Assembly (NCBI GenBank): GCA_013286385.1
Contig: JABDFU010000001.1
Span: 39,730-103,729, forward strand
Direction of reading: 5' to 3'
Source: Bacteroidota bacterium
GTDB taxonomy: Bacteria > Bacteroidota > Bacteroidia > JABDFU01
Length of the DNA stretch: 64,000 nucleotides
Shown piece by piece: positions 1 to 38,332 of the stretch. Position 1 is the first letter of the stretch, and each line of letters starts with the position of its first letter. The position numbers and the translations under genes are program-made. The notes beneath the pieces were generated by a model. It saw only the letters and a list, made by a program, of their open reading frames with translations, was not told the origin of the DNA and ran no database searches.

Positions 1-474
1 GTGAACCTTGGCAAAAAATTCGATTCGGTTATTTCTCTTTTTCATGTGGCGAGTTACCAGACCTCCAACGAAGATCTCCGGCAATTTGTTGAAACGGCGA
101 AAAAGCATCTTAAAAAAGGGGGGCTTTTTATTTTTGATGTCTGGCATGGTCCTGCCGTGCTTACCGACAAGCCTTTGGTCAGGACAAAAGAAGTTGAAAA
201 CGAAAGCTTGTTAATTATCCGTGATACACAGCCGGTATTGCGCTCAGAAGAAAATGTTGTTGAAGTTAATTTTATCATAAAGGTTTCGGATAAAGTTCGA
301 AATACCACCCAGACGCTTTCAGAGTGCCACCGGATGCGTTATCTGTTCAAACCTGAACTGATGCTGCTTCTGAAAGAAGCAGGCCTGGAACTGATCAGAA
401 GCGAGAAATGGATGACTGCCGAAGACCCCTCTTTTTCTTCCTGGTACGTTACCTATATAGCAAGAATGAATTAA
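1..474 (+). CDS. Class I SAM-dependent methyltransferase, C-terminal part (5' end outside the window)
   Basis: ORF is open at the window start and stops at TAA 472-474. 'ISLFHVASYQT...AKKHLKKGGLFIFDVWHGP' resembles the post-SAM-binding region of Rossmann-fold methyltransferases. Confidence 0.6.
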   Translation: MNLGKKFDSVISLFHVASYQTSNEDLRQFVETAKKHLKKGGLFIFDVWHGPAVLTDKPLVRTKEVENESLLIIRDTQPVLRSEENVVEVNFIIKVSDKVRNTTQTLSECHRMRYLFKPELMLLLKEAGLELIRSEKWMTAEDPSFSSWYVTYIARMN

Positions 475-22818: not shown

Positions 22819-23747
22819 AAAAAACTTTCATTTTTAAGTTTGTTTGCATTCTCGCAACCTTTGTTTTGTTGTTTCAGCTGAGCTTTGGGTTCCTGCTTCC
22901 TTTGTTACTTGTGCATTCAGGAGATTCAACTATGCAAAGATGGTATAACTTTTTTCGCCATCCAGTTGATGCTGAACTGGTTATCCTGGGAAGCTCCCGC
23001 GTTCACAGACATTTTGATCCATCTGTAATTGAAACCAAGACCGGAATGAAAACAGAAGACATCGCAACGGGCGGAGCTCTGTTCAATTTTCTAGAAGCCC
23101 TTTACAAAGATTATTTGAAATTGAATAAGTCGCCAAAGGTTTTTATTTTTGGTTTGGATCTGAGTGGACTGTACAATTCTGATTTGGTGCCCAATCCTGA
23201 ATTTTTTTTTCAGGGAATGTTACCTTCTTCTTCGATTTCTCAGCTCCCTGCTTTTCAGTTGGTAAATACTCCAAGGTCTTTTGGATATTTCTATTACAAG
23301 GAATTCTATTTCAATGCCATTGTCAACCCGGAAAAGAATACATTTTACAAAGGATTTGAAGCGTGTGATTTGAAGTGGGGAGAAGTAAAAGACCCCGGCT
23401 CTGGGGAGGTTCTTGAAAATTTCAGTTTTGGCATCGACCCCATTTTGATTGACAGAATTATGAAATTCATTTCGAAACAGGCCGAAAATGGGAGTCAGTC
23501 TTTCGCCGTAATTGCTCCCGAGTTCAACTCGGTTTGGAAATTTGAAAGCAATAGGAATGAAGCCGTTGAAGAAGTCTATTCGATTGCAAAAAAATACAAG
23601 GTCAGAATAATTAATTTTTCTGACACTTCTTACAAAGTAAATTTTGACAAAAATTACTTTTACAATACCCAGCACCTTAACGCAAAAGGAGCTACACTAT
23701 TTAGCAAGGATTTTTGCGATTCCCTGGCGAAATATGTGAAAAGGTAG
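22815..23747 (+). CDS. Hypothetical exported/anchored protein, probable MBOAT accessory (DltD/AlgX-like role)
   Basis: TTG start in a TTGA overlap with the MBOAT stop, and an N-terminal hydrophobic anchor 'FVCILATFVLLFQLSFGFLL'. The role is inferred from position; 'ILGSSRVHRHFDP' is only loosely DltD-like. Confidence 0.35.
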   Translation: MKKTFIFKFVCILATFVLLFQLSFGFLLPLLLVHSGDSTMQRWYNFFRHPVDAELVILGSSRVHRHFDPSVIETKTGMKTEDIATGGALFNFLEALYKDYLKLNKSPKVFIFGLDLSGLYNSDLVPNPEFFFQGMLPSSSISQLPAFQLVNTPRSFGYFYYKEFYFNAIVNPEKNTFYKGFEACDLKWGEVKDPGSGEVLENFSFGIDPILIDRIMKFISKQAENGSQSFAVIAPEFNSVWKFESNRNEAVEEVYSIAKKYKVRIINFSDTSYKVNFDKNYFYNTQHLNAKGATLFSKDFCDSLAKYVKR

Positions 23748-23838: not shown

Positions 23839-25575
23839 TTGCCTTATCCGAAAACCAAATACCCCAAAACCAATGATCTGGTAAGCCAATGCCGGTTATT
23901 TTTTACCTCCGTACTGTCATTCGTTTTTTTTGCAGTATTCCTGCTTTTTGCAAGCGCCGTTTCCTTTGCCCAGAAAAAAAGCTACGCCGGCCAGGGCGCC
24001 GTTTCTGAAATTGTCATGGCCTCCCCGGCAGAGATGGTTGGCCATTTCGATATGTTTTTCCGTTCAAAGGTCGCTGCAGAAGACAGCGACCGGCATACCT
24101 ACTGGTACAAAATCGTATTCAGCAAGGAATGCTCTTTTGATTTTACTTTGTTTCCGCTTTTCGAAAGCGACCGCTACGGATTCGATGTATTCAAAGTCGA
24201 AAACGACGCAAACTTTTGTCAGGCCCGGGTAAATCAAACAATAAAACCGGTTAAAAACATGGAGATCAAAATGTCCTATCACGACAATGATCAAACCGAA
24301 ACCTTCCGTTCAAATCTGGTCCAAACCCGCAAAGTTCCTGTCAAAGCAGGCGAGACCGTCTACCTGGTTGTTAAAAGCCTGAAAGGGCAGGACCACGGTC
24401 ACATCATTGGCCTTAATACCTGTGATTACGGTTATGTTCTGGAAGTCGATAAAGCGATTCCGAAATCTGACTCATCCCAATCAACGTCAATCCAAACGGC
24501 AGTGACAGTGCGTGCTGAATTAAGCGATGAAGAAGCTCTTGCATCCATCGGAAGTAAACTCTGTCCTCCGGATGGCAAACCGGTACAACTGGGTACGCTT
24601 AATTTCAATTCAAAAATTGAAGTCAGCAATTTACTTTACGCTAAAGGCGAAGTTAAAGGGGCCTCTGCAAAAAAAATCACGAAGCAGGCGCCTCTGCCAC
24701 TAAAAACAAAATCCTGCCTGCCGCAGGCATTGGCTTCATCTTCGTTAAAGGCTCAAAACACTAGTAGCTCCGCAATTGTGAAAACTCCTGCGGTAGTGTC
24801 GGCCTCTGTTTCGCAGGCTGCACCCGCAACTCCCGCTGTCCCGACCACCCCGAAGCCCGATATCTGGCTGAAAGAGTTGCAACCAACAGCCGCAACCACA
24901 AAATCAAAACTTATTCCCGTCAGGTGTCTGGTGACGGATGCTGTAAAAGCCAGCCCGATAAGCGAGCAGATAACCATTAAAGACGAACTCACCGGGGCCT
25001 GTATACCCGTGCAAAAAACAGCCACCGGTGAGTTCGAATTCGCAGTCGAAAAAGGCCGCATATACAAAGTAGACTGTGCGGTGATGGGATACAAAACCTT
25101 TGACCACCCGGTTAATATTTACAAAACTTTAAGAGGAGAGGAAAATCAGTTTGAAATCAAGCTGCAGCCTTTGGTGGCCGGAGAAAATTTCATACTTAAA
25201 AACATTTATTTTAATCCAAACACCCCGGTAATCAAGGACGAATCAACTGAAGAACTCGCGAAGCTCTTTACGTTTATGAAAAATAACCCTGAAGCGATTA
25301 TTTCAATCGAGGGTCATACCAATGGTCACAACCATATTGGTCGTGAAAGCTGGAGAGAAAAGAAAGGCGGAGACTGGGCCTTTCACGGAAGCGTCAAAAA
25401 GCTTTCAAGGCACAGAGCGTATCAGGTTATGAGCTACCTGGTCAAAAACGGCATCGCTTCCTCCAGGGTTAAAACCAAGGGTTGGGGAGATGCGCATGAA
25501 CTGTATCCCAACGCCCGTACAATGGAACAACGGTTAAAAAACATGAGGGTAGAGGTGGTCATACTTAAAAATTGA
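23839..25575 (+). CDS. OmpA-family protein with N-terminal unknown domain, Pro/Thr/Ala linker and C-terminal OmpA-like peptidoglycan-binding domain
   Basis: Signal-like 'FFAVFLLFASAVSFAQ', then 'FNPNTPVIKDESTEELAKLFTFMKNNPEAIISIEGHTNG...HRAYQVMSYLVKNGI'. There is no in-frame ATG before the signal peptide, so the TTG start is uncertain. Confidence 0.75.
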   Translation: MPYPKTKYPKTNDLVSQCRLFFTSVLSFVFFAVFLLFASAVSFAQKKSYAGQGAVSEIVMASPAEMVGHFDMFFRSKVAAEDSDRHTYWYKIVFSKECSFDFTLFPLFESDRYGFDVFKVENDANFCQARVNQTIKPVKNMEIKMSYHDNDQTETFRSNLVQTRKVPVKAGETVYLVVKSLKGQDHGHIIGLNTCDYGYVLEVDKAIPKSDSSQSTSIQTAVTVRAELSDEEALASIGSKLCPPDGKPVQLGTLNFNSKIEVSNLLYAKGEVKGASAKKITKQAPLPLKTKSCLPQALASSSLKAQNTSSSAIVKTPAVVSASVSQAAPATPAVPTTPKPDIWLKELQPTAATTKSKLIPVRCLVTDAVKASPISEQITIKDELTGACIPVQKTATGEFEFAVEKGRIYKVDCAVMGYKTFDHPVNIYKTLRGEENQFEIKLQPLVAGENFILKNIYFNPNTPVIKDESTEELAKLFTFMKNNPEAIISIEGHTNGHNHIGRESWREKKGGDWAFHGSVKKLSRHRAYQVMSYLVKNGIASSRVKTKGWGDAHELYPNARTMEQRLKNMRVEVVILKN

Positions 25576-25668: not shown

Positions 25669-26775
25669 ATGACAAAAAAAACTGAAAACAGTCCCAAAGG
25701 AAGTGAATCAGCATTCAATTCGTTGCGCTTACTTCCTCCTGAAAAGTACAAGATTGAAACGGTAAAGGTGCTACGGCAATTGGTTAAGTCTTCCGTAGCT
25801 CTTGCAGAGCTTAAGGGGCTGGCGAAAATTCTGCCTAATCCCGACATCTTACTAAATGCGGTCATTTTAAAAGAAGCCCGTGCCAGTTCTGAAATAGAGA
25901 ATGTAATTACTACCCAGGATAAGCTTTACCAGGCCATGTCTGCCAAAGGAGGACTGGTGGATAGCGCAACAAAGGAGGTATTGCGCTATCGTGAAGCCAT
26001 GCTGTATGGTTTTAAGCTGATCCGGACGAAGGGATTTTTAACTACCAATGGTATTATTGAAATTCAGAGAATATTGGAAGAAAACAATGCAGGTATCCCG
26101 AAATTACCAGGCACGGCACTTCGCAATGCAGCAACAGGTAAAGTTATTTATACCCCACCGGATAACATTGATACGATTAACCGCTTGATGAAAAATCTGG
26201 AAGTATACCTCAACACGGAGGATGATAGTTCTCCTTTGGTAAAAATGGCCGTTCAGCATTACCAGTTTGAAAGTATTCATCCTTTTTATGACGGAAACGG
26301 TCGTACGGGCAGAATTATCAATGTGCTGTACTTGATTTTACACAAGTTACTGGATAACCCTGTACTTTATTTAAGCGATTACATTATTGCCAATAAGGCA
26401 GACTATTACCGTTTATTGCAGGAAGTGCGTTCAAAAGAAAATTGGGAGGGATGGATACTCTACATCCTGAAAGGAGTTGAGCAAACTGCGAATGAAACCA
26501 TTGTTCAGGTAAATGAGATCAGTAGTTTGTTTTCACAGACTCAGAACCTGGTAAAAAAGAAAGCTCCGAATGCGTATAGCAAAGAATTAATAGAGTTACT
26601 ATTTGAGCACCCCTACAGTAAAAGCGAATATTTGACTACTCGTTTGGGAATTTCCCGGATTACTGCTTCCAAATACCTGAAAGAACTGGAGGCAATCAGA
26701 ATTCTTCAATCAAGGCGGGTGTGGAAGGAAACTTTGTATATTAATACAAACTTGTTTGAATTGCTTAAAAAGTAG
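25669..26775 (+). CDS. Fic-family protein (AMPylase-type motif) with N-terminal inhibitory motif and C-terminal winged-helix
   Basis: Fic motif 'HPFYDGNGRTGR' at 26278-26313 fits HxFx[DE]GN[GK]R. 'SSEIEN' at 25885-25902 fits [ST]xxxE[GN]. C-terminal 'LGISRITASKYLKELEAIRIL' is HTH-like. Confidence 0.9.
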   Translation: MTKKTENSPKGSESAFNSLRLLPPEKYKIETVKVLRQLVKSSVALAELKGLAKILPNPDILLNAVILKEARASSEIENVITTQDKLYQAMSAKGGLVDSATKEVLRYREAMLYGFKLIRTKGFLTTNGIIEIQRILEENNAGIPKLPGTALRNAATGKVIYTPPDNIDTINRLMKNLEVYLNTEDDSSPLVKMAVQHYQFESIHPFYDGNGRTGRIINVLYLILHKLLDNPVLYLSDYIIANKADYYRLLQEVRSKENWEGWILYILKGVEQTANETIVQVNEISSLFSQTQNLVKKKAPNAYSKELIELLFEHPYSKSEYLTTRLGISRITASKYLKELEAIRILQSRRVWKETLYINTNLFELLKK

Positions 26776-26847
26776 TTGCATACGCAAATTTTCAAACTAC
26801 TTTCCTATCTTCGCATCCGATTTGCAAAAAAATCATACTGTAAAATC

Positions 26848-27861
26848 ATGATAAAACGCATACTGTTTCTGTTGATATTCAGCTCTTCGTTCATTTTTGC
26901 CCAGCAAAAAGCAGATTCAACAGCTCCTGCTGAGCCAGCGGTAGTTCCACCTACCATCAATAATAGCATTACTACTCCAAAATCAGACACATCGAAAACC
27001 CCGGCCGCTGCAAAGCCCGATGCAGCCGCTGCAAAACCTGAACAGGAAAAACCCTCAAATATTAAAACGGGCCCCGGTACCAACGGCAAAGACACCATTA
27101 CCGGTGCGGGTGTTGCAATGGCGCCTTCTTCTATGTTCTTCCGTACGAAACCTGGCAAATCAGAAACCATCTACCTTACCATCACCAACGACCAGAAAAA
27201 ATCGGAGCGCTTTAAAATTTCCTTCCAGGACTATGTCATGGACAACCATGGAAAATCTTCCGGTGTCCCTTTTGGTCAGATTGCGCCATATGGATTAGGT
27301 AAATTTGTTATTGCCTCCCCAAGTCTGGTTGAATTGAAGCCCGGGGAAAAAAAGAAAGTAGCTGTAACGGTATCTATGCCCGAAACCGACGAAGCTTACC
27401 GGTCCTGTTGGACCGAAATGATAGTTGACCGTGTTTCTGAGCGCAAACAGCTTGTTCCTGAAAAAGGAGGCGACAAGACCATGCAAATGGGCGTTATCCC
27501 AACCTACGGATTCGCCATTCACCTTTACCAGAATCCGCCCAACGTCCGGATTAATAAAGTAGAAATAACCAGGTTCAACTTTACCTACAACGATACTGCA
27601 AAGTTTATTGCCCTGGTGGTCAAAAATGCCGGAGATGGCATGGGTTTCTGTAAGTCCTACGTAGAAATTAACAACTTAAAAACGGGAAAAATCGAAAAAG
27701 ACCTGCTTAAGCAATTTGTCGTTTTCCCCGGAATGGAGCGCCAGTTTGATCTTACTATTCCCGGGAAACTGCTCAAGGGAAAGTATTCAGTATTAATGGT
27801 GCTTGATTTCGGAAGCAAAGACCAGCTCGAAACGGCTGAACAGGAGATTACGGTCAATTAG
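26848..27861 (+). CDS. Secreted two-domain beta-rich protein, candidate periplasmic chaperone (PapD-like organisation, hypothesis only)
   Basis: Signal peptide 'MIKRILFLLIFSSSFIFA/QQ' is followed by an ~80-aa Pro/Ala/Thr/Lys linker and two ~100-130-aa beta-strand-patterned modules ('FFRTKPGKSETIYLTITN..', 'LVELKPGEKKKVAVTV', 'FIALVVKNAGDG..'). ATG 26848 is preferred to the track's TTG at 26776. Confidence 0.35.
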   Translation: MIKRILFLLIFSSSFIFAQQKADSTAPAEPAVVPPTINNSITTPKSDTSKTPAAAKPDAAAAKPEQEKPSNIKTGPGTNGKDTITGAGVAMAPSSMFFRTKPGKSETIYLTITNDQKKSERFKISFQDYVMDNHGKSSGVPFGQIAPYGLGKFVIASPSLVELKPGEKKKVAVTVSMPETDEAYRSCWTEMIVDRVSERKQLVPEKGGDKTMQMGVIPTYGFAIHLYQNPPNVRINKVEITRFNFTYNDTAKFIALVVKNAGDGMGFCKSYVEINNLKTGKIEKDLLKQFVVFPGMERQFDLTIPGKLLKGKYSVLMVLDFGSKDQLETAEQEITVN

Positions 27862-27934
27862 CGGGGCCGGATTGTAACCTTCGAAGATTGTAATGCGTAG
27901 AACTCATCAAACAAAGACTATAAATAATTTATTT

Positions 27935-27965
27935 TTTGTTGAATTTATAATTTTTGCTACATTTG
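27935..27965 (+). promoter_or_regulatory. Bacteroidota sigma-A-type promoter: TTTG (-33) N19 TACATTTG (-7)
   Basis: TTTG at 27935-27938, a 19-nt spacer, then TACATTTG at 27958-27965, a perfect TAnnTTTG. It lies 36 nt upstream of ATG 28002. Confidence 0.5.
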
Positions 27966-28001
27966 CATTGAATCCAAAAAACAAACCAAAATCAACTACT
28001 T

Positions 28002-28952
28002 ATGAAAAAAATCTTCAAATTATCCGCGCTGATTGCCGCGATGGTTCTTGGAAAAGTATCATTTGCGCAATTGCAGGACGAACAGGATGTCACTATGACA
28101 ATGGATTTGCAGCCAATTTTGCAGCTTTCCATGGAGGGTCCCGATCAGATTGATTTTACTTTTGACGAGATCAATAAGTACTATACCGGGGTTGTGAAGA
28201 CAGGCGCGAACATTCTTAAAGTAAGCGCTTCGGTATCTTTTGACCTTTGGGCAGTTGGTGTTTCTACCGGATCGTTGAACAGTGTTACAACCGGTTTACT
28301 TTGGGACAATCCAGTACAATACGGTACCGGAATTACCGGAGTAGCTTTGAATACCATTCCGCTTACCGCGCTTGAATTGCACCAGTTCCCTGGCAATCCT
28401 GCCATTGCAACCTGTGCAGGTTCTACTACTGCCAACTCTGATTACAGTCAGCAATTTGCTCCTTTCAATTTCGCTACCAACACTATTCTTGGTGGCGCTG
28501 TAATTGCTTCCGGAAACAATGAAGTGTTTTGTTCTAACCCATCGGGCGCATACTTGCCCCCACTTAGTACAAACGGGCTCACTACTACTGAAAAGTATAT
28601 TGCCGGCGCAAGCAGCACAACTGCCGGTTGCCAGGTAGCTGCAGGTAGCTGGTTATTCGGGTCAATTGCAAACACTACAGCTCTTCCAAACACTGACGTT
28701 TCTTCTGTTGCAAATGCAAATGCTCAGCAAACTGCAGGCGGATACTATTTTGTAATGGATTACCGGATTCTTCCGGGTCTTCCTGCAAAATTCCCTTCGA
28801 CTTTGCCAGCTAACGATGCCAATAAAGCGGCTCCTTCTGTTACTGAAGCAACTCTTCAATGTGGTAGTTTAAATGTTGCTGGTAACGGCTTTTTCGCTGC
28901 TCCCGGTGTTTACACCATGTTCCTGAAATACATTTTGGCTGAAGACCAATAG
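28002..28952 (+). CDS. Secreted Gly/Ala/Thr/Ser/Asn-rich protein, candidate major fibre subunit (single copy of the 'ILAEDQ' domain)
   Basis: Signal peptide 'MKKIFKLSALIAAMVLGKVSFA/QL'. Paralogous to the C-terminal half of 29013..30398. Ends in 'PGVYTMFLKYILAEDQ'. Has its own promoter and terminator. Confidence 0.4.
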   Translation: MKKIFKLSALIAAMVLGKVSFAQLQDEQDVTMTMDLQPILQLSMEGPDQIDFTFDEINKYYTGVVKTGANILKVSASVSFDLWAVGVSTGSLNSVTTGLLWDNPVQYGTGITGVALNTIPLTALELHQFPGNPAIATCAGSTTANSDYSQQFAPFNFATNTILGGAVIASGNNEVFCSNPSGAYLPPLSTNGLTTTEKYIAGASSTTAGCQVAAGSWLFGSIANTTALPNTDVSSVANANAQQTAGGYYFVMDYRILPGLPAKFPSTLPANDANKAAPSVTEATLQCGSLNVAGNGFFAAPGVYTMFLKYILAEDQ

Positions 28953-28973
28953 AATAATATACGCTCAATCATT

Positions 28974-29004
28974 AAAAGGCTGCCTCATCTGGCAGCCTTT
29001 TTTT
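28974..29004 (+). terminator. Rho-independent terminator/attenuator hairpin
   Basis: AAAA, GGCTGCC (28978-84), loop TCATCT, GGCAGCC (28991-97), then TTTTTTT (28998-29004). It starts 22 nt after the stop of 28002..28952. Confidence 0.65.
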
Positions 29005-29012
29005 ATATATAT

Positions 29013-30398
29013 TTGTATGTGGAGACATGTATTCGAAAATGCCTGTGGGTTGTTATTGGTTTATTTCTGCTAAAATCAACTTCCTTTGCAGGTGTATGTC
29101 CTGGTCAGTCTTTCGTTGGCAATCAGCTTCAAACAGCAACTCTTGAGTTTACCAGTTTCGGCGACCTCATCTCCGGTAAGGCGTTTAGCGCATTTGTTAT
29201 TACGGTAACTGATCCCACGGTTGGTTGTCCCTGGGATTTATTCATTTCTGACGCGGCTCCTTTTGCACCTACTGTAACTCAGCTTATAAGCTATAGCGGT
29301 CAGGGAGTAGTTTTGCCAATTTCGGATGTAAATATAAGGGCTACAACCTCCTGCGACGGCCCTAATGAGTTATATGGTGGTCTTGTACGTACTACACCAA
29401 ACATCAATGAGAATTTCCCTGCCCTTGCAGCATCCCCGTTTGCTGTTGTGGGTGCCGGTTCACACAATGTGATTGGTACCGACGGGGCTCACGATGGTGT
29501 ATTGGCAAACAATACGGGCTTTTGTGCCGGCAATATTAATGATTTTGGTAACGGCTCAAGCAATCCCCAGAACAATGTCATACAATTTGATATACAGGTG
29601 ACGCCCGGTGTAAATACAATCATACAACCCGGTCTTTATCAATTGAGTGTAACAGTTGTGCTGGAAGATGATGCTACTGGAGCGCAATTACAGCACCAGA
29701 CCTTTACTTTTGAAATCGACATCGAGCCCATTATACAGCTAACGATGAATACCAATTCCCAGATTGATTTTGAATTCACCAGCCTTACGAATTATTCCGG
29801 AGGAATCACCCAATATGGTGCTACGATTCTTCAGGTCAGTTCGAGTGTGAACTGGGATTTAATGGCCGTAGGCACTTCAACACTAAATGAATCAGGAGCC
29901 CCGGGTACAAATCCCTATTGGGATAATACAATTAAATATGCGGCCACCGGTACAACCAACATTCCGCTTGACATTCTCGAACTCTTTCAGTCTCCCGCCA
30001 ATCCTTTTAATGCGGTGCCGGGTGCCGATTACAGTGCGGGCTTTACCAGCCCTCCTTCCGGCAAAAACAACCTGATTACAGCCTATGGTTCGGGTGTGGC
30101 TCTTACGGCTGTGGCACCTTATTCGCTGGCACCTGGGGCGGCAACAAGAACCATTGCCGGTGACTGGACTACGGTGGGGGCCCCCCTTCATGCGGGAATA
30201 CCCGGAAGTTACCTTTCTATTAATAAGGCAGGAGCAGGCGCCTGGGTAAATGCCAACTACCGTTACGTTATCAGTTACAGGCTTACACCAGGATTGCCGG
30301 TACTTTTTTCGTATTCCAAAATATATACCATGCCCACATTTGCAACACCGGGATCCTATACGATGCAGGTAAAATACATTTTGGCAGAAGATCAGTAA
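29013..30398 (+). CDS. Secreted protein made of two tandem copies of the subunit domain (candidate minor/tip subunit)
   Basis: Signal-like 'VVIGLFLLKSTSFA/GV'. The internal domain ends in 'PGLYQLSVTVVLEDD' and the C-terminus in 'PGSYTMQVKYILAEDQ'. 'IEPIIQLTMNTNSQIDFEFT...ILQVSSSVNWDLMAVG' aligns with 'LQPILQLSMEGPDQIDFTFD...ILKVSASVSFDLWAVG' of 28002..28952. The start is non-ATG (TTG 29013 or GTG 29019). Confidence 0.4.
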   Translation: MYVETCIRKCLWVVIGLFLLKSTSFAGVCPGQSFVGNQLQTATLEFTSFGDLISGKAFSAFVITVTDPTVGCPWDLFISDAAPFAPTVTQLISYSGQGVVLPISDVNIRATTSCDGPNELYGGLVRTTPNINENFPALAASPFAVVGAGSHNVIGTDGAHDGVLANNTGFCAGNINDFGNGSSNPQNNVIQFDIQVTPGVNTIIQPGLYQLSVTVVLEDDATGAQLQHQTFTFEIDIEPIIQLTMNTNSQIDFEFTSLTNYSGGITQYGATILQVSSSVNWDLMAVGTSTLNESGAPGTNPYWDNTIKYAATGTTNIPLDILELFQSPANPFNAVPGADYSAGFTSPPSGKNNLITAYGSGVALTAVAPYSLAPGAATRTIAGDWTTVGAPLHAGIPGSYLSINKAGAGAWVNANYRYVISYRLTPGLPVLFSYSKIYTMPTFATPGSYTMQVKYILAEDQ

Positions 30399-30413
30399 AC
30401 CGTTAAACCGTTT

Positions 30414-33400
30414 ATGCAGAAGACACTATCCTTTTGTTTTTTCATACTGATCGCATCGATTCTTTCTGCCCAGAATTTACCTTCAGACACCGTCAAAAAC
30501 CCAAAGCCAGTGGGAAAACTTACTGCCCAATTCGACAGTGTCGAAATTCTGATTCAGGATGGGGAGGTTTTCTCAAAAAACATGCGGGTCGTAAGCAATG
30601 TAGATGTTCCCTTTTCATTCAAAGTAGATATCACGTTTCCTGCAGAATGGAAGTCCCTTGTTAATCCGAACAAAAAATACACAATAGATCCCCACGATAC
30701 CCTATACGTGCCCTTGCATTTAGTACCGCTTGGAAAGATCAAAGGGAATACCAAATACATGATTACTGCCTTTTTGTTTGATACCATAGGTTCTCCGATT
30801 ACTTCAGCCTATGTTAACGCGGCCCGGCCGAAGTTTACCAAATGGTCGTTAAATCTGGGTCCCTACAAAAAAATTTATTTTAAGAATGATTCCAGTACGG
30901 CACGTTTTACCATCAATGTCGGAAACGAAGGAACCGAGACTCAGGACCTTTACCTGAGCATGGGAAACCTTAGAAAAGATGTTATCATACTCGACACAGC
31001 CGGAAGAATTATAAAAAAGCCGTCTTACACTTTTAGTCTGAAGCAGTTTTCTGATACTACTTTTCATTTCGGGGTAAAGATTTTTTCGGCATCACGCAAC
31101 ATGAAAAGGGTTGATTCAGATGGCTACAGGCCTGGTGGCCCTGGCGAATCAAGATCCTATGCGATTTTTGTAAAAACGATGGAAACCAGTTTGTTCGGTT
31201 CTCTTGCCAGGCAAATAAGTGACCGGCTGTCATTTGTAAAATTGCCCAATGAAACCAGAATATCAGATTACGGCATGTATTCCCTGCCCATGACCATGGA
31301 TCTTACCTTCAGCAATTTGTTTTCTGATGAATTATTGACCAACCTGCATCTGTATGGGGCAACCAAACTGGATGACGGAGCGAATATTTTTTACAACGCA
31401 CAGTTTATGACCGCATTTAATACGCTTGGCAGTTCTGTTTTCCCTTCTCCTTTTCTTACGCTGGGCTATTCAAACTATCGCATGTCCATAATGATTGGCG
31501 ATGTAGGAGGCGGAGCGGGTGGTATTGGGTTCGGGGGCAAAGGAATTACCGGCCAATACATGCTCAGTAAGCGGCACAGGGTCGGGGCTTTCTTTGTGAT
31601 GAATCCCGGTTTTTTAAATAGAATCACATATATAGGATTCGGAGCCAATTACAACTATACCGGAGAAAAATTTACCGGAGGGGTTTCGTATGCACATTTG
31701 GAAAATATGGGTAATTTAAATGGAGCCGTCAATTCAGATTACCTGAGTTTTCAGGGATCTTACACAATAGCTTCAACCCAGGGTGTCTCTCTTTCTGTAA
31801 TACTTGTCAATAATGTTCAGGGTTCGATAGCAAATCAGGGTTATAATGTAAGTGCGGGCTATCATGGAGGCTTTATCAGGCAAAAACTCCAGGTGAATCT
31901 TTCGGGTTCTTTTTTTTCGAGCTATTATTCGTTTTACGATCAGGGAAACCGGGGGATGGTAAATCTGAACAGCAGCTATCGATTTAAAAAGAGCTGGTAC
32001 CTGCGCATGAACAATTCCTTCAACCAGTACGCCGCAACCGAGCCGGTACCGACCCTGATTTTTTATTCCCAGCAGTCCCTTAATAATCAGATATCTGTAT
32101 CCCGTTCGATGGATATTCACTCTTCTTTTACAGCAGGCTTTTTCTTTAATGTATTCAGAGACGACTACTACGACTATACCTCCGTGTCAAGAGGTATTAA
32201 TCTGGGATTGAATTATTCCCTTCCCGAAAGCTACCTGATCTTCAGTACAAATACCATGATGGGTTTCACACAGATTACAAGCGCCCCCGACTATCCGAAC
32301 AATTTTTTCATCAACCTGTTCACCTTGCTTAAATACCGTGTGTTCTCGCTTAATGTCAGATACAGCAACGGAAATCCTTCGGGCATCAATATCAACACGA
32401 CCAGTTCGAATCTCTATTCAGAAGACCTTGCCATTACCCTGAACCACCAATACCAGTTCAGAAACAGGCGTTTCATCTTAAATAATTCCATTACCTATAA
32501 TTTAATGCCCGAGATTCAACGCAACAGTTTTGGCATTACGCCCGAATTAAATTATTATTCGCTGAACGGATGGAGAATACGACTTACCGCAGGATATTAT
32601 TTTTCAGAATCGGCGCCATTGAATTACACTTCGTTTCAGTCGCTTGTCCCTTCTTCGTCAGACAATTCTTCAGCTTCGACTGCCCCGATCGTTTCAACAA
32701 GTTATTTGCTTATGCTGGGAGTTCACAAAGATTTCGGTATTCCCCTGCCTTTTATCAAAAGAAGATATCCAAGTCTTAATTTCATTGCCTTTGTGGACAT
32801 CAATGGTAATGGTAAATTCGACTATGACGAAACCCGTCTCGAAAACGTCGTGATCAACGTAAATGGTTGGGAAGTGATGACCAATTCGAAAGGAGAAGCT
32901 CAGCTTAAGAATATGCCAGAGGGTGATTACGTCTGGCAGGCTTTCTGTCTGGACGATCTGAAAGGGTTTTTCCCGAATATTTCAGATAAAATAAAGGTTT
33001 TTGCTCCGCCTGAAGATTCTGTTCGCTCGAGATTTTTTGATCCCGGAAAGGTAGTTGCGGTGCCCTTTGTAAAGGGAATTCGTCTTTTCGGAAAAGTGTA
33101 TGCTGACCGTGAAAAGCTGTCTCCCGATGCATTAACCGCCCTAGACCTTTCAGGGATACGTATTTCTGTTAATTGTCAGGGCAAAAAATCGGCAACTCTT
33201 ACCGAAAGTGACGGATCTTTCTCTTTTTACCTGCCTTATGGTTCGTACATATTAACGATGGATGAAAAGGTACTTGGTGATCAATTCAGGGTATTGCAGA
33301 ACGATATTGATCTCACTCTGAACAAAGGGGTTGAAAATATGTTTGTTTCGTTTTACATAGTCGAAAACCAGCGAAAAATTATCCGTAAGCACTTCGATGC

Positions 33401-34028
33401 AAACGGCAATCTGATCAGCGAGGAATCAGAGGCTGTGAAACCGGCAGGTTCAGGAGGGGCCACAGGCTCTTCGGGTACGTCAAACATTCCGGGCGGAAAC
33501 AATGCTGCATTTTCTGGTATTGCCGCAGGAAATATACCTGGCGGAGGCTCTGGTGCAGCAGGGCCTGGTTTAGTCACGGCCAATGGTGCGGGAACTGGCT
33601 CAGGTTCAGCCAATGGTAGCGGATCCGGAGCGTCAGCCGGCGCCGGAAAAGACCTCATTGCCGAAGCCAACGCTGCGGCTAACAAAAAGCCACGCCCGAA
33701 AAACGATGTATCGAAAGATGCATTTTTGGCCGACAAAACAGATGCCACAACTACAAAAGGCCTTATTTATACCGTTCAATTGGGGGCATTGGTAAAGCCA
33801 CTCGATCCTGTTATATTCAAAGGGCTTAAAAATCTTATGTACGAACGAATCGACAACCAGATGGTACGCATTACCGCAGGCAATATGGGCACTGAAGCTG
33901 AGGCGCTTGCCGAACGCGATAACCTGTCCAGGGTTGGCTTCCCCGGAGCCTTTGTTTCGGTATACTACGACGGTAAAAACATTTCACTGTCTGAGGCCCG
34001 TCAGATCAAAAAGAACAGCACTCATTAA
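30414..34028 (+). CDS. 1204-aa outer-membrane beta-barrel-like protein with flanking Ig-like domains, Gly/Ala/Ser linker and C-terminal SPOR-like domain (candidate usher/export pore)
   Basis: Signal peptide 'MQKTLSFCFFILIASILSA/QN'. The central ~500 aa has alternating aromatic/Gly beta-strand patterning ('YIGFGANYNYTGEKFTGGVSYAHL', 'WRIRLTAGYYFSE'). 'SDGSFSFYLPYGSYILTM' is CarboxypepD_reg-like. The linker is at 33438-33653, and the SPOR-like 'IYTVQLGAL...MVRITAGNMGTEAEALAERDNLSRVGFPGAFVSVY' at ~33759-33990. Confidence 0.45.
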   Translation: MQKTLSFCFFILIASILSAQNLPSDTVKNPKPVGKLTAQFDSVEILIQDGEVFSKNMRVVSNVDVPFSFKVDITFPAEWKSLVNPNKKYTIDPHDTLYVPLHLVPLGKIKGNTKYMITAFLFDTIGSPITSAYVNAARPKFTKWSLNLGPYKKIYFKNDSSTARFTINVGNEGTETQDLYLSMGNLRKDVIILDTAGRIIKKPSYTFSLKQFSDTTFHFGVKIFSASRNMKRVDSDGYRPGGPGESRSYAIFVKTMETSLFGSLARQISDRLSFVKLPNETRISDYGMYSLPMTMDLTFSNLFSDELLTNLHLYGATKLDDGANIFYNAQFMTAFNTLGSSVFPSPFLTLGYSNYRMSIMIGDVGGGAGGIGFGGKGITGQYMLSKRHRVGAFFVMNPGFLNRITYIGFGANYNYTGEKFTGGVSYAHLENMGNLNGAVNSDYLSFQGSYTIASTQGVSLSVILVNNVQGSIANQGYNVSAGYHGGFIRQKLQVNLSGSFFSSYYSFYDQGNRGMVNLNSSYRFKKSWYLRMNNSFNQYAATEPVPTLIFYSQQSLNNQISVSRSMDIHSSFTAGFFFNVFRDDYYDYTSVSRGINLGLNYSLPESYLIFSTNTMMGFTQITSAPDYPNNFFINLFTLLKYRVFSLNVRYSNGNPSGININTTSSNLYSEDLAITLNHQYQFRNRRFILNNSITYNLMPEIQRNSFGITPELNYYSLNGWRIRLTAGYYFSESAPLNYTSFQSLVPSSSDNSSASTAPIVSTSYLLMLGVHKDFGIPLPFIKRRYPSLNFIAFVDINGNGKFDYDETRLENVVINVNGWEVMTNSKGEAQLKNMPEGDYVWQAFCLDDLKGFFPNISDKIKVFAPPEDSVRSRFFDPGKVVAVPFVKGIRLFGKVYADREKLSPDALTALDLSGIRISVNCQGKKSATLTESDGSFSFYLPYGSYILTMDEKVLGDQFRVLQNDIDLTLNKGVENMFVSFYIVENQRKIIRKHFDANGNLISEESEAVKPAGSGGATGSSGTSNIPGGNNAAFSGIAAGNIPGGGSGAAGPGLVTANGAGTGSGSANGSGSGASAGAGKDLIAEANAAANKKPRPKNDVSKDAFLADKTDATTTKGLIYTVQLGALVKPLDPVIFKGLKNLMYERIDNQMVRITAGNMGTEAEALAERDNLSRVGFPGAFVSVYYDGKNISLSEARQIKKNSTH

Positions 34029-34686: not shown

Positions 34687-34694
34687 TAACTTTG
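34687..34694 (+). promoter_or_regulatory. Candidate -7 box TAACTTTG
   Basis: Perfect TAnnTTTG 27 nt upstream of ATG 34722. It overlaps the track's TTG start (34692), which argues for the ATG. No good -33 TTTG. Confidence 0.35.
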
Positions 34695-34721
34695 CTGGAG
34701 TTTTTAAGGCTGCTTTTTACA

Positions 34722-37508
34722 ATGAAACTTAAAGTCGGTATTTTTTTCGGTGGCAACTCCAAAGAACGTGAAGTCTCCTTCGCCGGAGGCCGGACGGTTT
34801 ACGACAATCTGAATAAATCCCTTTTCGATGCCGTTCCGGTTTTTGTAGACTCCTTTGGTAATTTCGTTTTGCTCGAGTGGCAATACATTTACAAAGGCAG
34901 TATACGTGATTTTTATCCTCCTGTAGAATTCATACCGTCCGGAAACGATGGCCGCAGAAGCGGCGGCAGTGGCGCAAGCAACAATGGCAACTCCGGCAAG
35001 GGGGACTATCAGATCTACGCTGAAAATCTGGGCCCATTGGGTGCCCGGGAACAGGAAGAGCTCATCGATAAAATCGGAAGCCGCATATACCCTTCAGAGC
35101 TCAACGGTATGATCGATTTTGCTTTTCTCTGCCTGCATGGAAGTAACGGAGAAGACGGCCGCCTTCAGGGCCTGCTCGAATACCTCAGCATTCCCTATTC
35201 GGGTTCCGGGATACTGCCTTCGTCCATAGGCATGAACAAGTCGGTTCAGAAAGAGCTCATGGTCAATGCAGGCTTTGCAAGTCCGGCTTACCTGAGCGTA
35301 AGCCGGGAAGAATGGGACAGGGGCAAAGCAGCCGAATCCCTGTTTGAAAAAGTCAAAAAAAGCATAGGATTCCCGCTGGTTATCAAGCCGGCCAATCAGG
35401 GTTCTTCCATAGGTGTTAGCATACTACATAATTCAGATATTCAGTCATTTACAGTATCAATGGAGAAGGCTTACTTTAATAGGTATCTGTATGCCTCCCA
35501 GTGGAATAAACTGAGCTCCGAAGCCAAGCTCGAATACCTGCGGCAGTTGGCCGACATTCGCGAAGGAATTGGTTTTCCCCTGATGATCCGTAAGCCCGAC
35601 AAAGAGAACCCCAATCCGAATTACGACAAACGCACGGTATTTTATCACCCGGATGAATTGGCTTCTTACCTGGATCAGGTCATGCGAAGCAGGGTAGGGG
35701 TACTGCTCGAATCTGCAGCGGGCGAAAGTCATGTGCTGATCGAGGAATTCATCGAAGGCCGTGAATTTTCCTGTATCGTTCTGCAGGATGAGAACAAAAA
35801 GGCCATTGCCCTGCCTCCGACCGAAATCCGCAAAGGAAAAGAACTCTTCGATTACCGTTCGAAATACCTGCCCGGATTATCCCGCAAGATTACCCCCATC
35901 GATCTGCCGGCAGATCAGATCAACGAACTCAGAAAGCAGTGCGAGCGTCTCTTTTATGCCCTTCATTTCGATGTTTATGCGCGTATAGACGGATTCATCC
36001 GTACCGATGGCCGCATCTTCCTGAACGATCCCAACACGACCTCGGGCATGATGCCCTCTTCCTTCTTTTTTCACCAGGCCGCCGAGATCGGGCTAAATCC
36101 TTCGCAGTTCCTTACCTACATTATCAGAACCTCCCTTTCCTGCCGTATTGCAGACTCCAAAAACAGCGGGCTATACGATCAGTTGCTCGTTCAACTCGAC
36201 AAGGCCATTGAACAGGATCATCACCAGTCGGCAAACCGCATACGGGTGGCCGTTCTGTTCGGAGGCTATTCCTCCGAACGCCATATTTCAGTCGAAAGCG
36301 GACGCAACGTTTTTGAAAAACTGGCCTCCTCTTCGAAATACGAACCACTGCCGGTTTTTCTTACCGGCAGCGACGATGAGCATAAGCTCTACAGTGTTCC
36401 CATCAACCTGTTGCTGAAAGACAATGCCGACGACATCAAAGAAAAAGCCGAGAACTACAGTGTTCATCCGGTCATTCAGCAGATCATCGATGCCTGTGCG
36501 CCCATTACAGCTAAATATGCAGGAACCAAGGCGCTTTCGAAACCCCGGCAACTTTCCTACACCGGATTAAAACAGTCTTGCGAAGTTGTATTCATTGCCT
36601 TGCACGGACGTCCCGGCGAAGACGGAGCCGTGCAGCGTCAGCTCGATAAGCTCGATCTTCCCTACAACGGTTCGGATGCCGCGAGCTCTAAAATCACGAT
36701 TGATAAGTATACGACCAACGAAATCCTGCGCCGCAACGGCTTTCTGGTTGCCCGCCACATGCTGGTAAGCGAAGAAGACTGGCAGGACTACCCCGTTAAG
36801 ATGCTCGACCTGATCAAATCTGATATACACTTTCCTTTTATCGCTAAGCCCGTTGACGACGGTTGCAGTTCAGCCGTACGAAAAATCAAGACGCCCGAAG
36901 AATTCTCGGCCTTCGCCAAACTTATTTTCCGTAAAAACGAAGAACTCGATCCGCAGGCCTCCGAACTACTGCACCTCCGGGCAAAAGAAGAATTTCCCAT
37001 AAAAAAAGTAATCCTTGTCGAAGAACTTATTGCTGCGAATGGCGCCAGGCATTTTCTCGAAATCACCGGAGGCATGCTTACTTCTTATGACACAAGCGGT
37101 CATTTAGAGTACCAGGTCTTCGAAGCCTCCGAGGCCTTGTCCGAAGGAGAAGTGCTGTCACTCGAAGAAAAATTCCTGGCCGGGCAAGGTCAGAATATTA
37201 CTCCGGCAAGGTATTCGGCCGAACCGGTCCTGCGGCAAAAAATTTCGGATCAGGTAAAAAAGCAGCTGGGCGCTGCCGCAAAACTGCTGAACATAAACGG
37301 ATACACCCGCATCGACGCCTTTGTCCGCATATTTTCCGACAGCAGGGTAGAAGTCATCTTTATCGAAGTCAATTCACTTCCGGGCATGACGCCCGCGACC
37401 TGCATCTTTCACCAGTCTGCCCTGCAGGGTTATAAACCGTACGAATTCATCGACCGTATACTCGACTTCGCCTTTGCCCGAAAAAACCGTAAATTGGCTC
37501 CCCGGTGA
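34722..37508 (+). CDS. ddl: Tandem fusion of two D-alanine--D-alanine ligase-like ATP-grasp modules
   Basis: Module 1: 'KVGIFFGGNSKEREVS', 'LHGSNGEDGRLQGLLEYLSIPYSGSG', 'KPANQGSSIGVSIL', 'NDPNTTSGM'. Module 2 (from ~36235): 'RVAVLFGGYSSERHISV', 'LHGRPGEDGAVQRQLDKLDLPYNGSD', 'KPVDDGCSSAVRKI', 'IEVNSLPGMTP'. Confidence 0.75.
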   Translation: MKLKVGIFFGGNSKEREVSFAGGRTVYDNLNKSLFDAVPVFVDSFGNFVLLEWQYIYKGSIRDFYPPVEFIPSGNDGRRSGGSGASNNGNSGKGDYQIYAENLGPLGAREQEELIDKIGSRIYPSELNGMIDFAFLCLHGSNGEDGRLQGLLEYLSIPYSGSGILPSSIGMNKSVQKELMVNAGFASPAYLSVSREEWDRGKAAESLFEKVKKSIGFPLVIKPANQGSSIGVSILHNSDIQSFTVSMEKAYFNRYLYASQWNKLSSEAKLEYLRQLADIREGIGFPLMIRKPDKENPNPNYDKRTVFYHPDELASYLDQVMRSRVGVLLESAAGESHVLIEEFIEGREFSCIVLQDENKKAIALPPTEIRKGKELFDYRSKYLPGLSRKITPIDLPADQINELRKQCERLFYALHFDVYARIDGFIRTDGRIFLNDPNTTSGMMPSSFFFHQAAEIGLNPSQFLTYIIRTSLSCRIADSKNSGLYDQLLVQLDKAIEQDHHQSANRIRVAVLFGGYSSERHISVESGRNVFEKLASSSKYEPLPVFLTGSDDEHKLYSVPINLLLKDNADDIKEKAENYSVHPVIQQIIDACAPITAKYAGTKALSKPRQLSYTGLKQSCEVVFIALHGRPGEDGAVQRQLDKLDLPYNGSDAASSKITIDKYTTNEILRRNGFLVARHMLVSEEDWQDYPVKMLDLIKSDIHFPFIAKPVDDGCSSAVRKIKTPEEFSAFAKLIFRKNEELDPQASELLHLRAKEEFPIKKVILVEELIAANGARHFLEITGGMLTSYDTSGHLEYQVFEASEALSEGEVLSLEEKFLAGQGQNITPARYSAEPVLRQKISDQVKKQLGAAAKLLNINGYTRIDAFVRIFSDSRVEVIFIEVNSLPGMTPATCIFHQSALQGYKPYEFIDRILDFAFARKNRKLAPR

Positions 37509-38332
37509 GCAACTTCGTTTCGTTTATTAAAAGCAAAGTCTTTTTAAAACATCTGGGCCTGGCTTTGCTCGTGCTTTTCGTACTGACCTGGATAGTTTTC
37601 AAGGCGCTGAACATTTATACCCTGCACGGAGAAAGCATACAGGTACCCGATTTTACGGGTCTGAAAATAGCAGAACTGAACACCTTTGCGAAGGAGAATA
37701 AACTCAATTGCCGTATCATCGACTCCGTGTACGACCCCAAAGCTCCAAAAGGCATCGTGATACGCCAGGATCCTGCAAATAAAATTGCAGTCAAACAAAA
37801 TAGAACCATCTATTTGTACGTTACCACCCAGACAGCACCCCAGGTCATCATGCCGAAGCTTAAAGATAAATCACTCCGACAAGCCATTTCCATGCTCGAA
37901 TCCTATGGTCTCCGTTTTGGCCATCCACAATATAAACCCGATCAATGCGCCAATTGTATACTCGAACAGCGTGTAAAGGGAAAAAAAATAGAGGCCGGTA
38001 CCTCACTTCCCAAAGGAACCATAGTCGACCTGGTGGTTGGAAAAGGCCTGAGCAACGAAAAGGTAAGCATCCCGAATCTGAGTGGTCTCACCTATAGCCA
38101 GGCCCTTGATAAACTCGGCGAATTTTCGCTCAGCGAAGGGGTTCCTACTTTTGAAGCCCCCGCCGATACGCTGCATGAAAAACTCTACCGTCAGATTCCC
38201 GGCCCCGGTAAAGACCGACTGATACGCATGGGAAGCAGCATCGATCTGTTTTTTACAAACGATAAAGACAAATTAAAACAACCCGGTACTGACGAACCAT
38301 CAGACACTGTACTACAGAATAAACCCCAATAA
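37505..38332 (+). CDS. Membrane-anchored standalone PASTA-domain protein
   Basis: GTG start in a GTGA overlap, TM 'LGLALLVLFVLTWIVF', and three PASTA-like repeats ('VPDFTGLKIAELNTFAKENKL', 'MPKLKDKSLRQAISMLESYGL', 'IPNLSGLTYSQALDKLGEF'). Confidence 0.75.
   Translation: MSNFVSFIKSKVFLKHLGLALLVLFVLTWIVFKALNIYTLHGESIQVPDFTGLKIAELNTFAKENKLNCRIIDSVYDPKAPKGIVIRQDPANKIAVKQNRTIYLYVTTQTAPQVIMPKLKDKSLRQAISMLESYGLRFGHPQYKPDQCANCILEQRVKGKKIEAGTSLPKGTIVDLVVGKGLSNEKVSIPNLSGLTYSQALDKLGEFSLSEGVPTFEAPADTLHEKLYRQIPGPGKDRLIRMGSSIDLFFTNDKDKLKQPGTDEPSDTVLQNKPQ

Follow-up and report, generated by a model that had tools for sequence, protein, structure and literature searches.

What do four consecutive genes for secreted proteins build when none of their products belongs to a named family? 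The question is raised by a locus in a stretch of 64,000 nucleotides (nt) from a Bacteroidota bacterium (Bacteroidia, JABDFU01; assembly GCA_013286385.1, contig JABDFU010000001.1, positions 39,730 to 103,729), referred to here at its full length as the window, in which the genes that we call P1, P2, P3, and P4 follow one another (Table 1). A first-pass annotation made from the letters alone had described them as an orphan operon for a candidate undescribed surface-fibre system with a logic like that of the chaperone-usher pathway, and had suggested that such a system would be either very divergent or convergent. We find that P2 is, judged by its sequence, the major subunit of a fibre of the type known as TLP-1, a full-length homologue of a protomer that polymerizes by donor-strand exchange, that P1 and P4 are predicted to fold like a pilus chaperone and an usher, and that the genes recur in the same order across the Bacteroidota. 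Considering these observations together, we think it likely that the four genes form an operon particular to Bacteroidota, whose products build surface fibres of the TLP-1 type in a chaperone-usher-like way.

The four genes and their products

As first described, the four open reading frames (ORFs) lie on one strand and all four products begin with a Sec-type N-terminus carrying a type-I signal peptide, in which a basic segment, a hydrophobic segment, and a small-x-small motif succeed one another; the peptides and their cleavage sites (Table 1) were read by eye from the translations. Inspection of the sequences shows no lipobox Cys in P1-P4 (the Cys of P3 comes after A-G-V, which is incompatible with a lipobox), and Pfam and NCBIfam give no match in any of the four to Por_Secre_tail or another sorting domain of the type IX secretion system (T9SS), so that both absences reported at first reading hold; a neighbouring gene at 38333-40264 matches Por_Secre_tail with E 3.5e-10. 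No model of Pfam (2025) or NCBIfam (June 2026) scores above its cut-off on P1, P2, P3, or P4, in line with the earlier failure to place them in a named family, and with no model for the four families thousands of such genes are annotated as hypothetical. Nor did searches of P1-P4 with these libraries and family-level scans turn up any homology with SusC/D proteins, with T9SS or gliding components, or with type V pilins, the identities that the first-pass annotation had itself named as speaking against a new fibre system.

P2 and the TLP-1 fibrils

Used as a single query against PDB sequences, P2 finds entries 9IKJ ('TLP-1') and 9IKK ('TLP-2'), each deposited as 16 chains, at E 6.2e-24, with P2 residues 25-314 aligned to chain residues 3-235, i.e. 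over essentially the whole protein, and a profile of 30 P2 relatives finds the same two entries at E 9e-65 and no other PDB match. These are the fibrils TLP-1a/b from Tsinghua Lotus Pond, found by CryoSeek and published in PNAS in 2024 (PMC11494351; PDB 9IKJ/9IKK): 8-nm helical tubes from filtered pond water, solved at 3.2-3.5 A, whose sequence was derived from the density. They are held together by donor-strand exchange, protomer n+4 supplying the N-terminal strand that makes the immunoglobulin (Ig)-like fold of protomer n complete, and by this n+4 -> n geometry the tube consists of four separate strand-linked chains (PMC11494351). Neither mass spectrometry nor metagenomics gave the authors of that study a sequence that matched, and the species of origin, the gene, and the machinery were left unidentified (PMC11494351).

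The homology extends to the ends of the protomer. In the alignment, the fibre model begins (residue 1) at Q23 of P2, directly after the predicted signal-peptidase site A22/Q23, and cleavage there would expose the donor strand as the mature N-terminus. The most conserved parts of the P2 family are this donor-strand motif (AQLxDExxVTxTMDLQP, nearly invariant) and the last strand (PGVYTMxVxYxLxEDQ). P2 of the window is 29% identical to TLP-1a, and the second gene of sister operons reaches 38-48% identity over the full length, the top match coming from a groundwater Bacteroidetes metagenome-assembled genome (MAG). The family is small, a set of 1.84 billion proteins holding only 95 of its clusters at 50% identity, and no Pfam model matches it. 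UniProt A0A2M8AA21, the reference model of the fibril paper, falls in a cluster that holds only 'hypothetical protein' GenBank accessions from Flavobacteriales/Vicingus MAGs; its link to a specific operon locus is likely but unproven. Our literature search found no later paper on TLP-1 genes or on a usher system of Bacteroidota, and a cyanobacterial tubular pilus (PMC12397347) was set aside as a different system. The early description of P2 as a structural subunit is therefore borne out by a solved fibre protomer, and the epithet 'undescribed' survives in part: the genes and machinery are undescribed in the literature searched, but the fibre itself has already been seen by electron cryomicroscopy.

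A tip-like domain fused to a second pilin domain in P3

P3 had been described as two tandem copies of the P2 domain, which is correct for its C-terminal half and incorrect for its N-terminal half. Residues 227-433 match TLP-1b at E 6.5e-20 in a PDB sequence search, and the N-terminal half (P3N) is a divergent Cys-rich paralogue, with four Cys conserved in its family, that is related to the P2 family only remotely (hhalign 98.6%, E 5e-16); the alignment begins at P2 mature residue 17, so that the 12 residues of the donor strand are missing from P3N. Most genomes encode P3N on its own, in a gene of ~205-230 amino acids (aa). The junction in the window reads ...VVLEDDATGA-QLQHQTFTFEIDIEP..., in which the 'A/QLQ' of the signal-peptidase site is kept and a donor-strand-like FTFEIDIEP (nt 29700-29729) lies eight residues past the last P3N strand. 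P3 thus looks like a P3N gene fused with a duplicated P2 gene, and the P3N groove may possibly be complemented in cis. Tip subunits of the FimH/PapG type have a groove and no donor strand. By analogy, P3N, with a groove but without a donor strand, could sit only at the distal end of a chain, and the combination of a P2-type domain with a remote paralogue fits the minor or tip subunit that had been envisaged.

A chaperone-like and a usher-like protein

The AlphaFold2 model of P1 (predicted local distance difference test, pLDDT, 80 overall and >90 over residues 88-337) shows a signal helix, a disordered linker, and two beta-sandwiches, which agrees with the early reading of P1 as a two-domain Ig chaperone whose modules stand behind a Pro/Ala/Lys linker. 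Compared with the PDB by Foldseek, the model finds as its best match the WxLIP of Enterococcus faecium (9I25, 9I1Y; E ~1e-10), followed in an unbroken run by CfaA, CsuC, FimC, Caf1M, EcpB, DraB, SfaE, CupB2, and YadV, with >30 chains of chaperone-usher chaperones matched at E 1e-8 to 1e-6 and template-modelling (TM) scores of 0.5-0.58 on target length. For WxLIP, insertion of a hairpin strand into the WxL partner is predicted, and a role in stabilising and anchoring that partner has been proposed (PMC10599100), so that both sets of structural relatives work by the lending of a strand. The most conserved stretch of P1 (residues 215-231) holds, at 215-228, the candidate for a donated G1-like strand. 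Several of the P1 relatives (n=57) are named 'DUF916 domain-containing protein', and the Pfam matches of the family, all weak and sub-threshold, are to PF06030 (DUF916/WxLIP_PGBD) in 57/57, Cep192_D6 in 43/57, Motile_Sperm (MSP) in 41/57, and PapD_N in 11/57 (best E 1.7e-4), which we take to be PapD-like folds throughout. P1 of the window scores 24.2 bits against PF06030, just under the cut-off of 27.3, and has no match to PapD_N/PapD_C (PF00345/PF02753). Judged by sequence and Pfam, P1 itself carries neither a transmembrane helix nor a lipid anchor nor a peptidoglycan-binding module. No match to DUF3324 is seen in P1 or its family, and the protein stops right after its second domain. P1 would accordingly be a secreted, soluble periplasmic protein of two Ig domains, chaperone-like by its predicted fold.

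For P4 the AlphaFold2 model (residues 21-1010, pLDDT 77.9 and ~90 in the centre) contains a barrel between pairs of beta-sandwich domains, close in its limits to the ~270-790 guessed at first reading for a barrel flanked by Ig-like modules. The seven best Foldseek matches in the PDB are all FimD (807-865 aligned columns, E down to 5.6e-13), with PapC next. An invariant GIPLPF motif comes after ...GVHKDF, with which the last barrel strand ends. Beyond the barrel, CarboxypepD_reg-like matches are found sub-threshold, and the C-terminal end varies in the family between a SPOR-like domain, an OmpA domain (P0015, E 1.7e-15), and nothing; the SPOR-like end is seen with PF05036 in 8/8 relatives, again sub-threshold (best E 8e-5), so that both modules recognized at first reading are recovered at this level. 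Peptidoglycan-binding tails would place the C-terminus of P4 in the periplasm, and with an even number of strands the N-terminus would be periplasmic too, as in ushers. From the model we regard P4 as a putative usher-like outer-membrane assembly protein. Compared with P1 by hhalign as a possible built-in copy of it, the N-terminal region of P4 reaches 29% (E 6e-4).

Relatives of P4 are scarce in the protein database, where a repeat search with a trimmed five-sequence profile, a guard against the Gly/Ala/Ser linker filling the candidate list, added just two distant ones, and a genome scan was far more productive. Among the relatives, the P4 proteins of Lutibacter sp. Hel_I_33_5 (L001, 8001-12257) and Polaribacter (L032, L037, L040, L048) reach 1418-1779 aa in total, having a Lys/Glu/Thr-rich repetitive N-terminal extension of 450-800 residues before the conserved core in these marine Flavobacteriaceae. 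Residues ~355-385 of P4 form a Gly-rich, nearly invariant hairpin (GDVGGGAGGIGFGGKGITGQY) on predicted barrel strands 5-6, which may fold into the lumen and is a candidate for closing the pore.

Conservation of the operon and of the hairpin behind P2

When genomes were scanned at one per species, relatives of P4 turned up in 104 of them; the 80 loci that were kept all come from Bacteroidota. Carriers include Polaribacter, Pseudotenacibaculum, Flavicella, Salibacteraceae, Vicingaceae, Crocinitomicaceae, Bacteroidales, Chitinophagales, and Prolixibacteraceae, and among them are the cultured Pseudotenacibaculum haliotis KCTC 52127, Polaribacter uvawellassae SLMDC-22, Polaribacter sp. MF5-112, and Lutibacter sp. 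Hel_I_33_5. The order P1-P2-P3N-type-P4 on one strand is found in ~65 species genomes, a count that covers loci with sufficient flanking DNA; every locus with enough upstream DNA keeps it, the sole rearrangement being L070, and P4 is often just 3-15 nt from the third gene. In Lutibacter sp. Hel_I_33_5, a Flavobacteriales MAG, and a metagenome contig (P4 ~30% identity), the same four genes stand in the same order among unrelated neighbours, and in the neighbourhoods of these three relatives no other secretion component is conserved near the module. The four families thus co-occur in essentially every related locus, which the first-pass annotation had proposed as a check, and 'orphan' was the wrong label for a module conserved in roughly 100 species genomes.

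A distant branch (L086 1661-6326, L087 5637-11065, L088 5626-9943) has a shorter P2-like pilin (189-232 aa) together with a P3N-like protein and a P4-like barrel. In this branch P1 lies elsewhere in the neighbourhood or is not found within 7 kb; L087 carries a P1-like ORF at ~12704-13501 on the opposite strand (E 9e-45).

P2 had also been credited with its own promoter and terminator, of which the terminator is present, as a terminator-like hairpin, and conserved. A hairpin with a T-run occurs in 54 of the 70 related P2-P3 spacers versus 5 of the 67 P1-P2 spacers of similar length, with stem sequences that differ between loci. Its conservation after P2 points to P1 and P2 being made in excess over P3 and P4, and the hairpin is probably an attenuator that sets this subunit excess. 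The Bacteroidetes-type promoter-like motif is present as well, one of only 3 matches across the 64-kb window, but it stands upstream of P2 in just 2/69 loci, which rules it out as a family feature and makes it at best specific to this lineage; a scan for sigma-70 promoters is uninformative for Bacteroidota.

Proposed assembly pathway and alternative explanations

Going by the predicted folds, the most likely interpretation is that the chaperone-shaped P1 and the usher-shaped P4 assemble the P2 fibre. All four proteins would be exported by Sec and lose their signal peptides, P2 emerging as a major subunit whose Ig-like fold is incomplete and which carries a donor strand at its N-terminus. P1 would hold P2 (and P3) in the periplasm, probably lending the strand 215-GVIPTYGFAIHLYQ-228 to cap the groove, and the P1-subunit complexes would dock on the periplasmic N-terminal domains of P4, a presumed large outer-membrane barrel whose SPOR-like end would tether it to peptidoglycan. 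On reaching P4, each incoming P2 would displace P1 with its own donor strand, and the chain would be threaded outwards. P3, with a first domain that lacks a donor strand, would occupy the distal end only and would probably initiate assembly, while the hairpin would keep the transcripts of P1 and P2 in excess over those of P3 and P4.

Several results weigh against this pathway. Sequence and profile searches of the PDB find no chaperone for P1 and no usher for P4, returning only noise (synaptotagmin C2 domains and low-complexity matches to linkers), and Usher PF00577 is unmatched at E<=1 in 18 members of the P4 family. With hhalign the P1 family reaches a probability of 1.5% against six E. coli chaperones and P4 <1% against six E. 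coli ushers, where the comparison profiles, drawn from six E. coli K-12 operons, are shallow and lack archaic or alternative systems, so that very remote homology may still exist. The P4 model was built on only 18 sequences and has a predicted TM score (pTM) of 0.51; of the large barrel with a plug that had been raised as a check it shows the barrel but no plug-sized insertion (~80 residues) between strands 6 and 7, and it has two N-terminal domains, not one, and ~26 strands, not 24. P2 of the window, with its low identity to TLP-1a and ~58 extra residues, may form a fibre of different geometry; one pore does not obviously make a four-chain tube (n+4 -> n); and the distant P4 branch, where P2-like and P3N-like genes occur without P1 beside them, suggests that P1 may not be indispensable. 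With no sequence similarity to PapD or usher families found, we take the system, as had been suggested at first reading, to be a very divergent or convergent variant rather than a member of the classical class. At the level of fold and gene logic the chaperone-usher-like proposal is nonetheless supported, and none of the refuting outcomes named at first reading turned up in the analyses made.

An alternative that we hold to be unlikely, though it deserves serious weight, is that P2 polymerizes by itself outside the cell with no chaperone, as TasA and the archaeal cannulae do, P1 being a WxLIP-like adaptor that binds the base of the fibre and connects it with the envelope, and P4 no more than a secretion pore or anchor. 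The best fold match of P1 is indeed WxLIP and not a pilus chaperone, PF06030 is its only consistent Pfam signal, and the role proposed for WxLIP is to stabilise its partner and keep it anchored (PMC10599100); donor-strand polymers formed without a chaperone exist (PMC12518558), and some distant P4-type loci have no adjacent P1. P1, however, has nothing by which to be anchored and is therefore taken to be soluble in the periplasm, its gene opens the operon in ~65 genomes and lies 5' of the hairpin together with P2, which suggests a similar abundance of the two proteins. Subunits with an open groove must, besides, still traverse the periplasm unpolymerised.

The likeness of P4 to ushers might instead be one of big barrels in general, P4 being a transporter or envelope-integrity protein akin to TonB receptors, LptD, or OmpA, and the fibre leaving the cell by another way. 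TonB-dependent receptors and LptD do appear at lower ranks among the fold matches (E 1e-7 to 1e-5), the TM-scores against FimD are low (0.27-0.40), CarboxypepD_reg-like domains occur in SusC-type receptors too, and P4 has no sequence similarity to ushers. We nevertheless consider this improbable, and distinctly more so than self-assembly of P2: neither the TonB plug (PF07715) nor the TonB-dependent receptor families have a match at E<=1 in 18 P4 members, FimD ranks first seven times with alignments far longer than the ~600 columns of the receptors, P4 is strictly linked with P1, P2, and P3N in the order and with the close spacing described above, and no other secretion component is conserved nearby. 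That the four are unrelated secreted proteins lying side by side, with no system at all, has next to no probability; only the missing family annotation speaks for it, and it is already refuted by an order and strand conserved across Flavobacteriales, Bacteroidales, Chitinophagales, and others with different neighbours, and by the homology of P2 to a solved fibre subunit.

Returning to assembly by P1 and P4, a more far-reaching reading can be built on it, to whose three parts taken jointly we would give about an even chance. The genes would define a pilus class of the Bacteroidota in its own right, with four-chain donor-strand tubes, a DUF916-type chaperone, and a plug-less, peptidoglycan-tethered barrel of ~26 strands; its machinery would be independent of, or diverged beyond recognition from, the proteobacterial chaperone-usher pathway, with a chaperone ancestry common to the WxLIP of Firmicutes; and its carriers, widespread freshwater and marine Flavobacteriales, Bacteroidales, and Chitinophagales, would be the source of the abundant TLP-1 fibrils of the pond.

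Relation to known systems

We know of no classical chaperone-usher system in Bacteroidota. With such systems (Fim, Pap, CFA/I, the archaic Csu, CupE) the operon shares Sec-exported subunits with an N-terminal donor strand, a soluble periplasmic partner of two predicted Ig domains (P1), a predicted large barrel flanked by presumably periplasmic beta-sandwiches (P4), a donor-strand-less subunit suited to the tip (P3N), the absence of an ATPase, a hairpin after the gene of the major subunit, and components gathered in one operon, in the same order and strand in ~65 loci. It differs in having no similarity detectable at the sequence level (PF00345/PF02753, PF00577, hhalign, PDB profiles), in its gene order (chaperone, major subunit, minor subunit, usher), in a subunit of 24-30 kDa, and in the doubled N-terminal domains, ~26 strands, lack of a visible plug, and peptidoglycan-binding tail of P4; the homologous TLP-1 fibre, moreover, is a four-chain tube (n+4 -> n) and not one coiled chain (PMC11494351). 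Compared with TLP-1a/b themselves, P2 and the C-terminal half of P3 are homologous over the full protomer, with the N-terminal donor-strand motif, the C-terminal strand, and the mature N-terminus in common, and the additional residues of the window's P2 come from insertions in surface loops; what was described without gene, organism, or machinery stands here inside a four-gene operon of Bacteroidota.

The WxL clusters of Firmicutes, in which a WxLIP (DUF916-DUF3324) is encoded with two WxL proteins (PMC10599100; PDB 9I1Y, 9I25), resemble the operon in the fold and Pfam signal of P1, in the combination of one two-Ig-domain protein with two related partners, and in the predicted insertion of a strand by WxLIP. 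Unlike them, P1 has no C-terminal transmembrane helix, has no DUF3324 match, and stays below the PF06030 cut-off, P2, P3, and the P2 family have no WxL domain match, and the operon adds a dedicated barrel protein in a host that possesses an outer membrane. Type V pili (FimA/Mfa1) are strand-exchange polymers of Bacteroidota as well. Their pilins are made as lipoprotein precursors, are processed by a protease, and donate a C-terminal strand, whereas the proteins studied here have no lipobox, an N-terminal donor strand, and no match to a type V pilin family. TasA and the archaeal cannulae, which are likewise polymers made by donor-strand complementation, lack a dedicated Ig-type chaperone or barrel, candidates for both of which are conserved in the P1-P4 operon. 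T9SS cargo is set apart by the C-terminal sorting domain that P1-P4 do not have, and SusC/TonB receptors by PF07715 and receptor signatures, absent from the P4 family, and by a CarboxypepD_reg-like domain that in P4 stands behind the barrel and not ahead of it. The operon thus falls outside WxL clusters, type V pili, T9SS cargo, and SusC-type systems.

To our knowledge the known surface structures of Bacteroidota comprise only type V pili, type IV pili, and T9SS-dependent ones, and a confirmed pathway of the kind proposed here would extend chaperone-usher-type assembly to a new phylum. The gene, the organism, and the manufacture of TLP-1 were left open by CryoSeek (PMC11494351), and for these the operon supplies a family of subunit genes, the lineages that carry it (all Bacteroidota), and a candidate machine of three components, with cultured carrier strains in which the assembly question is directly testable by genetics. 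It also raises the evolutionary question of whether the DUF916/WxLIP fold is a second lineage of strand-donating chaperones common to diderms and monoderms, and the mechanistic question of how a pore builds a four-chain tube.

Features of the locus and neighbouring genes

The coordinates of the genes, domains, and signals are collected in Table 1. For P1 an alternative start, TTG at 26776, would add 24 aa, and the database protein P0017 starts at the ATG; the public gene call for P3 starts two codons downstream and gives 459 aa.

Table 1. Genes, protein segments, and signals of the P1-P4 locus (nucleotide positions are those of the window; residues count from the first residue of each protein; a slash marks the signal-peptidase cut)
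Feature	Position	Strand	Basis or remark
Gene P1	26848-27861	+	ORF, 337 aa from ATG
P1 signal peptide	residues 1-18	+	IFA/QQ site
P1 linker, disordered, Pro/Ala/Lys	residues ~22-85	+	AlphaFold2 model
P1 N-domain, flexible loop, C-domain	residues 88-196, 197-214, 238-336	+	AlphaFold2 model
P1 most conserved stretch, GVIPTYGFAIHLYQNPP	residues 215-231	+	conservation; after low-confidence loop ending domain 1
Promoter-like motif, TTTG-N19-TACATTTG	27935-27965	+	Bacteroidetes-type; 36 nt 5' of P2 ATG
Gene P2	28002-28952	+	ORF, 316 aa
P2 signal peptide	residues 1-22	+	SFA/QL site; mature N-terminus Q23
P2 donor strand, VTMTMDLQP	residues ~V30-P38, nt 28089-28115	+	TLP-1 homology, conservation
P2 conserved C-terminal strand, PGVYTMFLKYILAEDQ	C-terminus	+	family conservation
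Terminator-like hairpin and T-run	28974-29011 (hairpin 28974-29001)	+	11-bp stem, 6 G-C pairs; between P2 and P3
Gene P3	29013-30398	+	ORF, 461 aa
P3 signal peptide		+	SFA/GV site
P3N, tip-like minor subunit domain	residues ~27-221, nt 29091-29675	+	Cys-rich, without donor strand
P3C, P2-type pilin domain	residues 227-461, nt 29691-30395	+	TLP-1 match
Gene P4	30414-34028	+	ORF, 1204 aa
P4 signal peptide	residues 1-19	+	LSA/QN site
P4 two N-terminal beta-sandwich domains	residues ~36-282, nt 30519-31259	+	AlphaFold2 model
P4 barrel, ~26 strands	residues ~293-774, nt 31290-32735	+	AlphaFold2 model, centre pLDDT ~90
P4 two C-terminal beta-sandwich domains	residues ~788-984, nt 32775-33365	+	AlphaFold2 model
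P4 Gly/Ala/Ser linker	residues ~1006-1100	+	sequence
P4 SPOR-like domain	residues ~1115-1204, nt 33756-34025	+	sub-threshold PF05036

Directly 5' of the operon, at 25669-26775 (+), lies the gene for a Fic/SoFic-like adenylyltransferase in which Fic_N, Fic, and SoFic-like_C are all present (NF046030, E 7e-123, below cut-off). It is preceded at 23839-25575 (+) by a gene for a secreted protein of 578 aa that carries an OmpA domain (E 6.5e-13) at its C-terminus and is rich in Ser/Ala/Pro over a long central part. The N-terminal 430 residues of this protein have no family match, and it resembles, weakly and far below cut-off, OmpA proteins of the CHU_0125 and PorE types. The adjoining OmpA-family and Fic genes were ruled out as parts of the system, since they are not conserved beside the module in other genomes. 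Further upstream, an MBOAT O-acyltransferase gene (21421-22818, +) overlaps by 4 nt with a gene for a membrane-anchored protein of 310 aa without a family match, and the arrangement of the pair (21421-23747) is like that of polysaccharide O-acylation pairs.

The G+C content of the window is 0.38-0.45 up to ~34 kb and 0.46-0.50 across 34-54 kb, with the step at the end of the operon; the low-G+C stretch far exceeds the operon and therefore gives it no island signature. Downstream, at 34692-37508 (+), an ORF of 938 aa encodes a single polypeptide in which the complete D-Ala-D-Ala ligase unit (Dala_Dala_lig_N and _C) occurs twice, a tandem fusion unusual for Ddl, and a gene for a PASTA-domain protein follows at 37505-38332.

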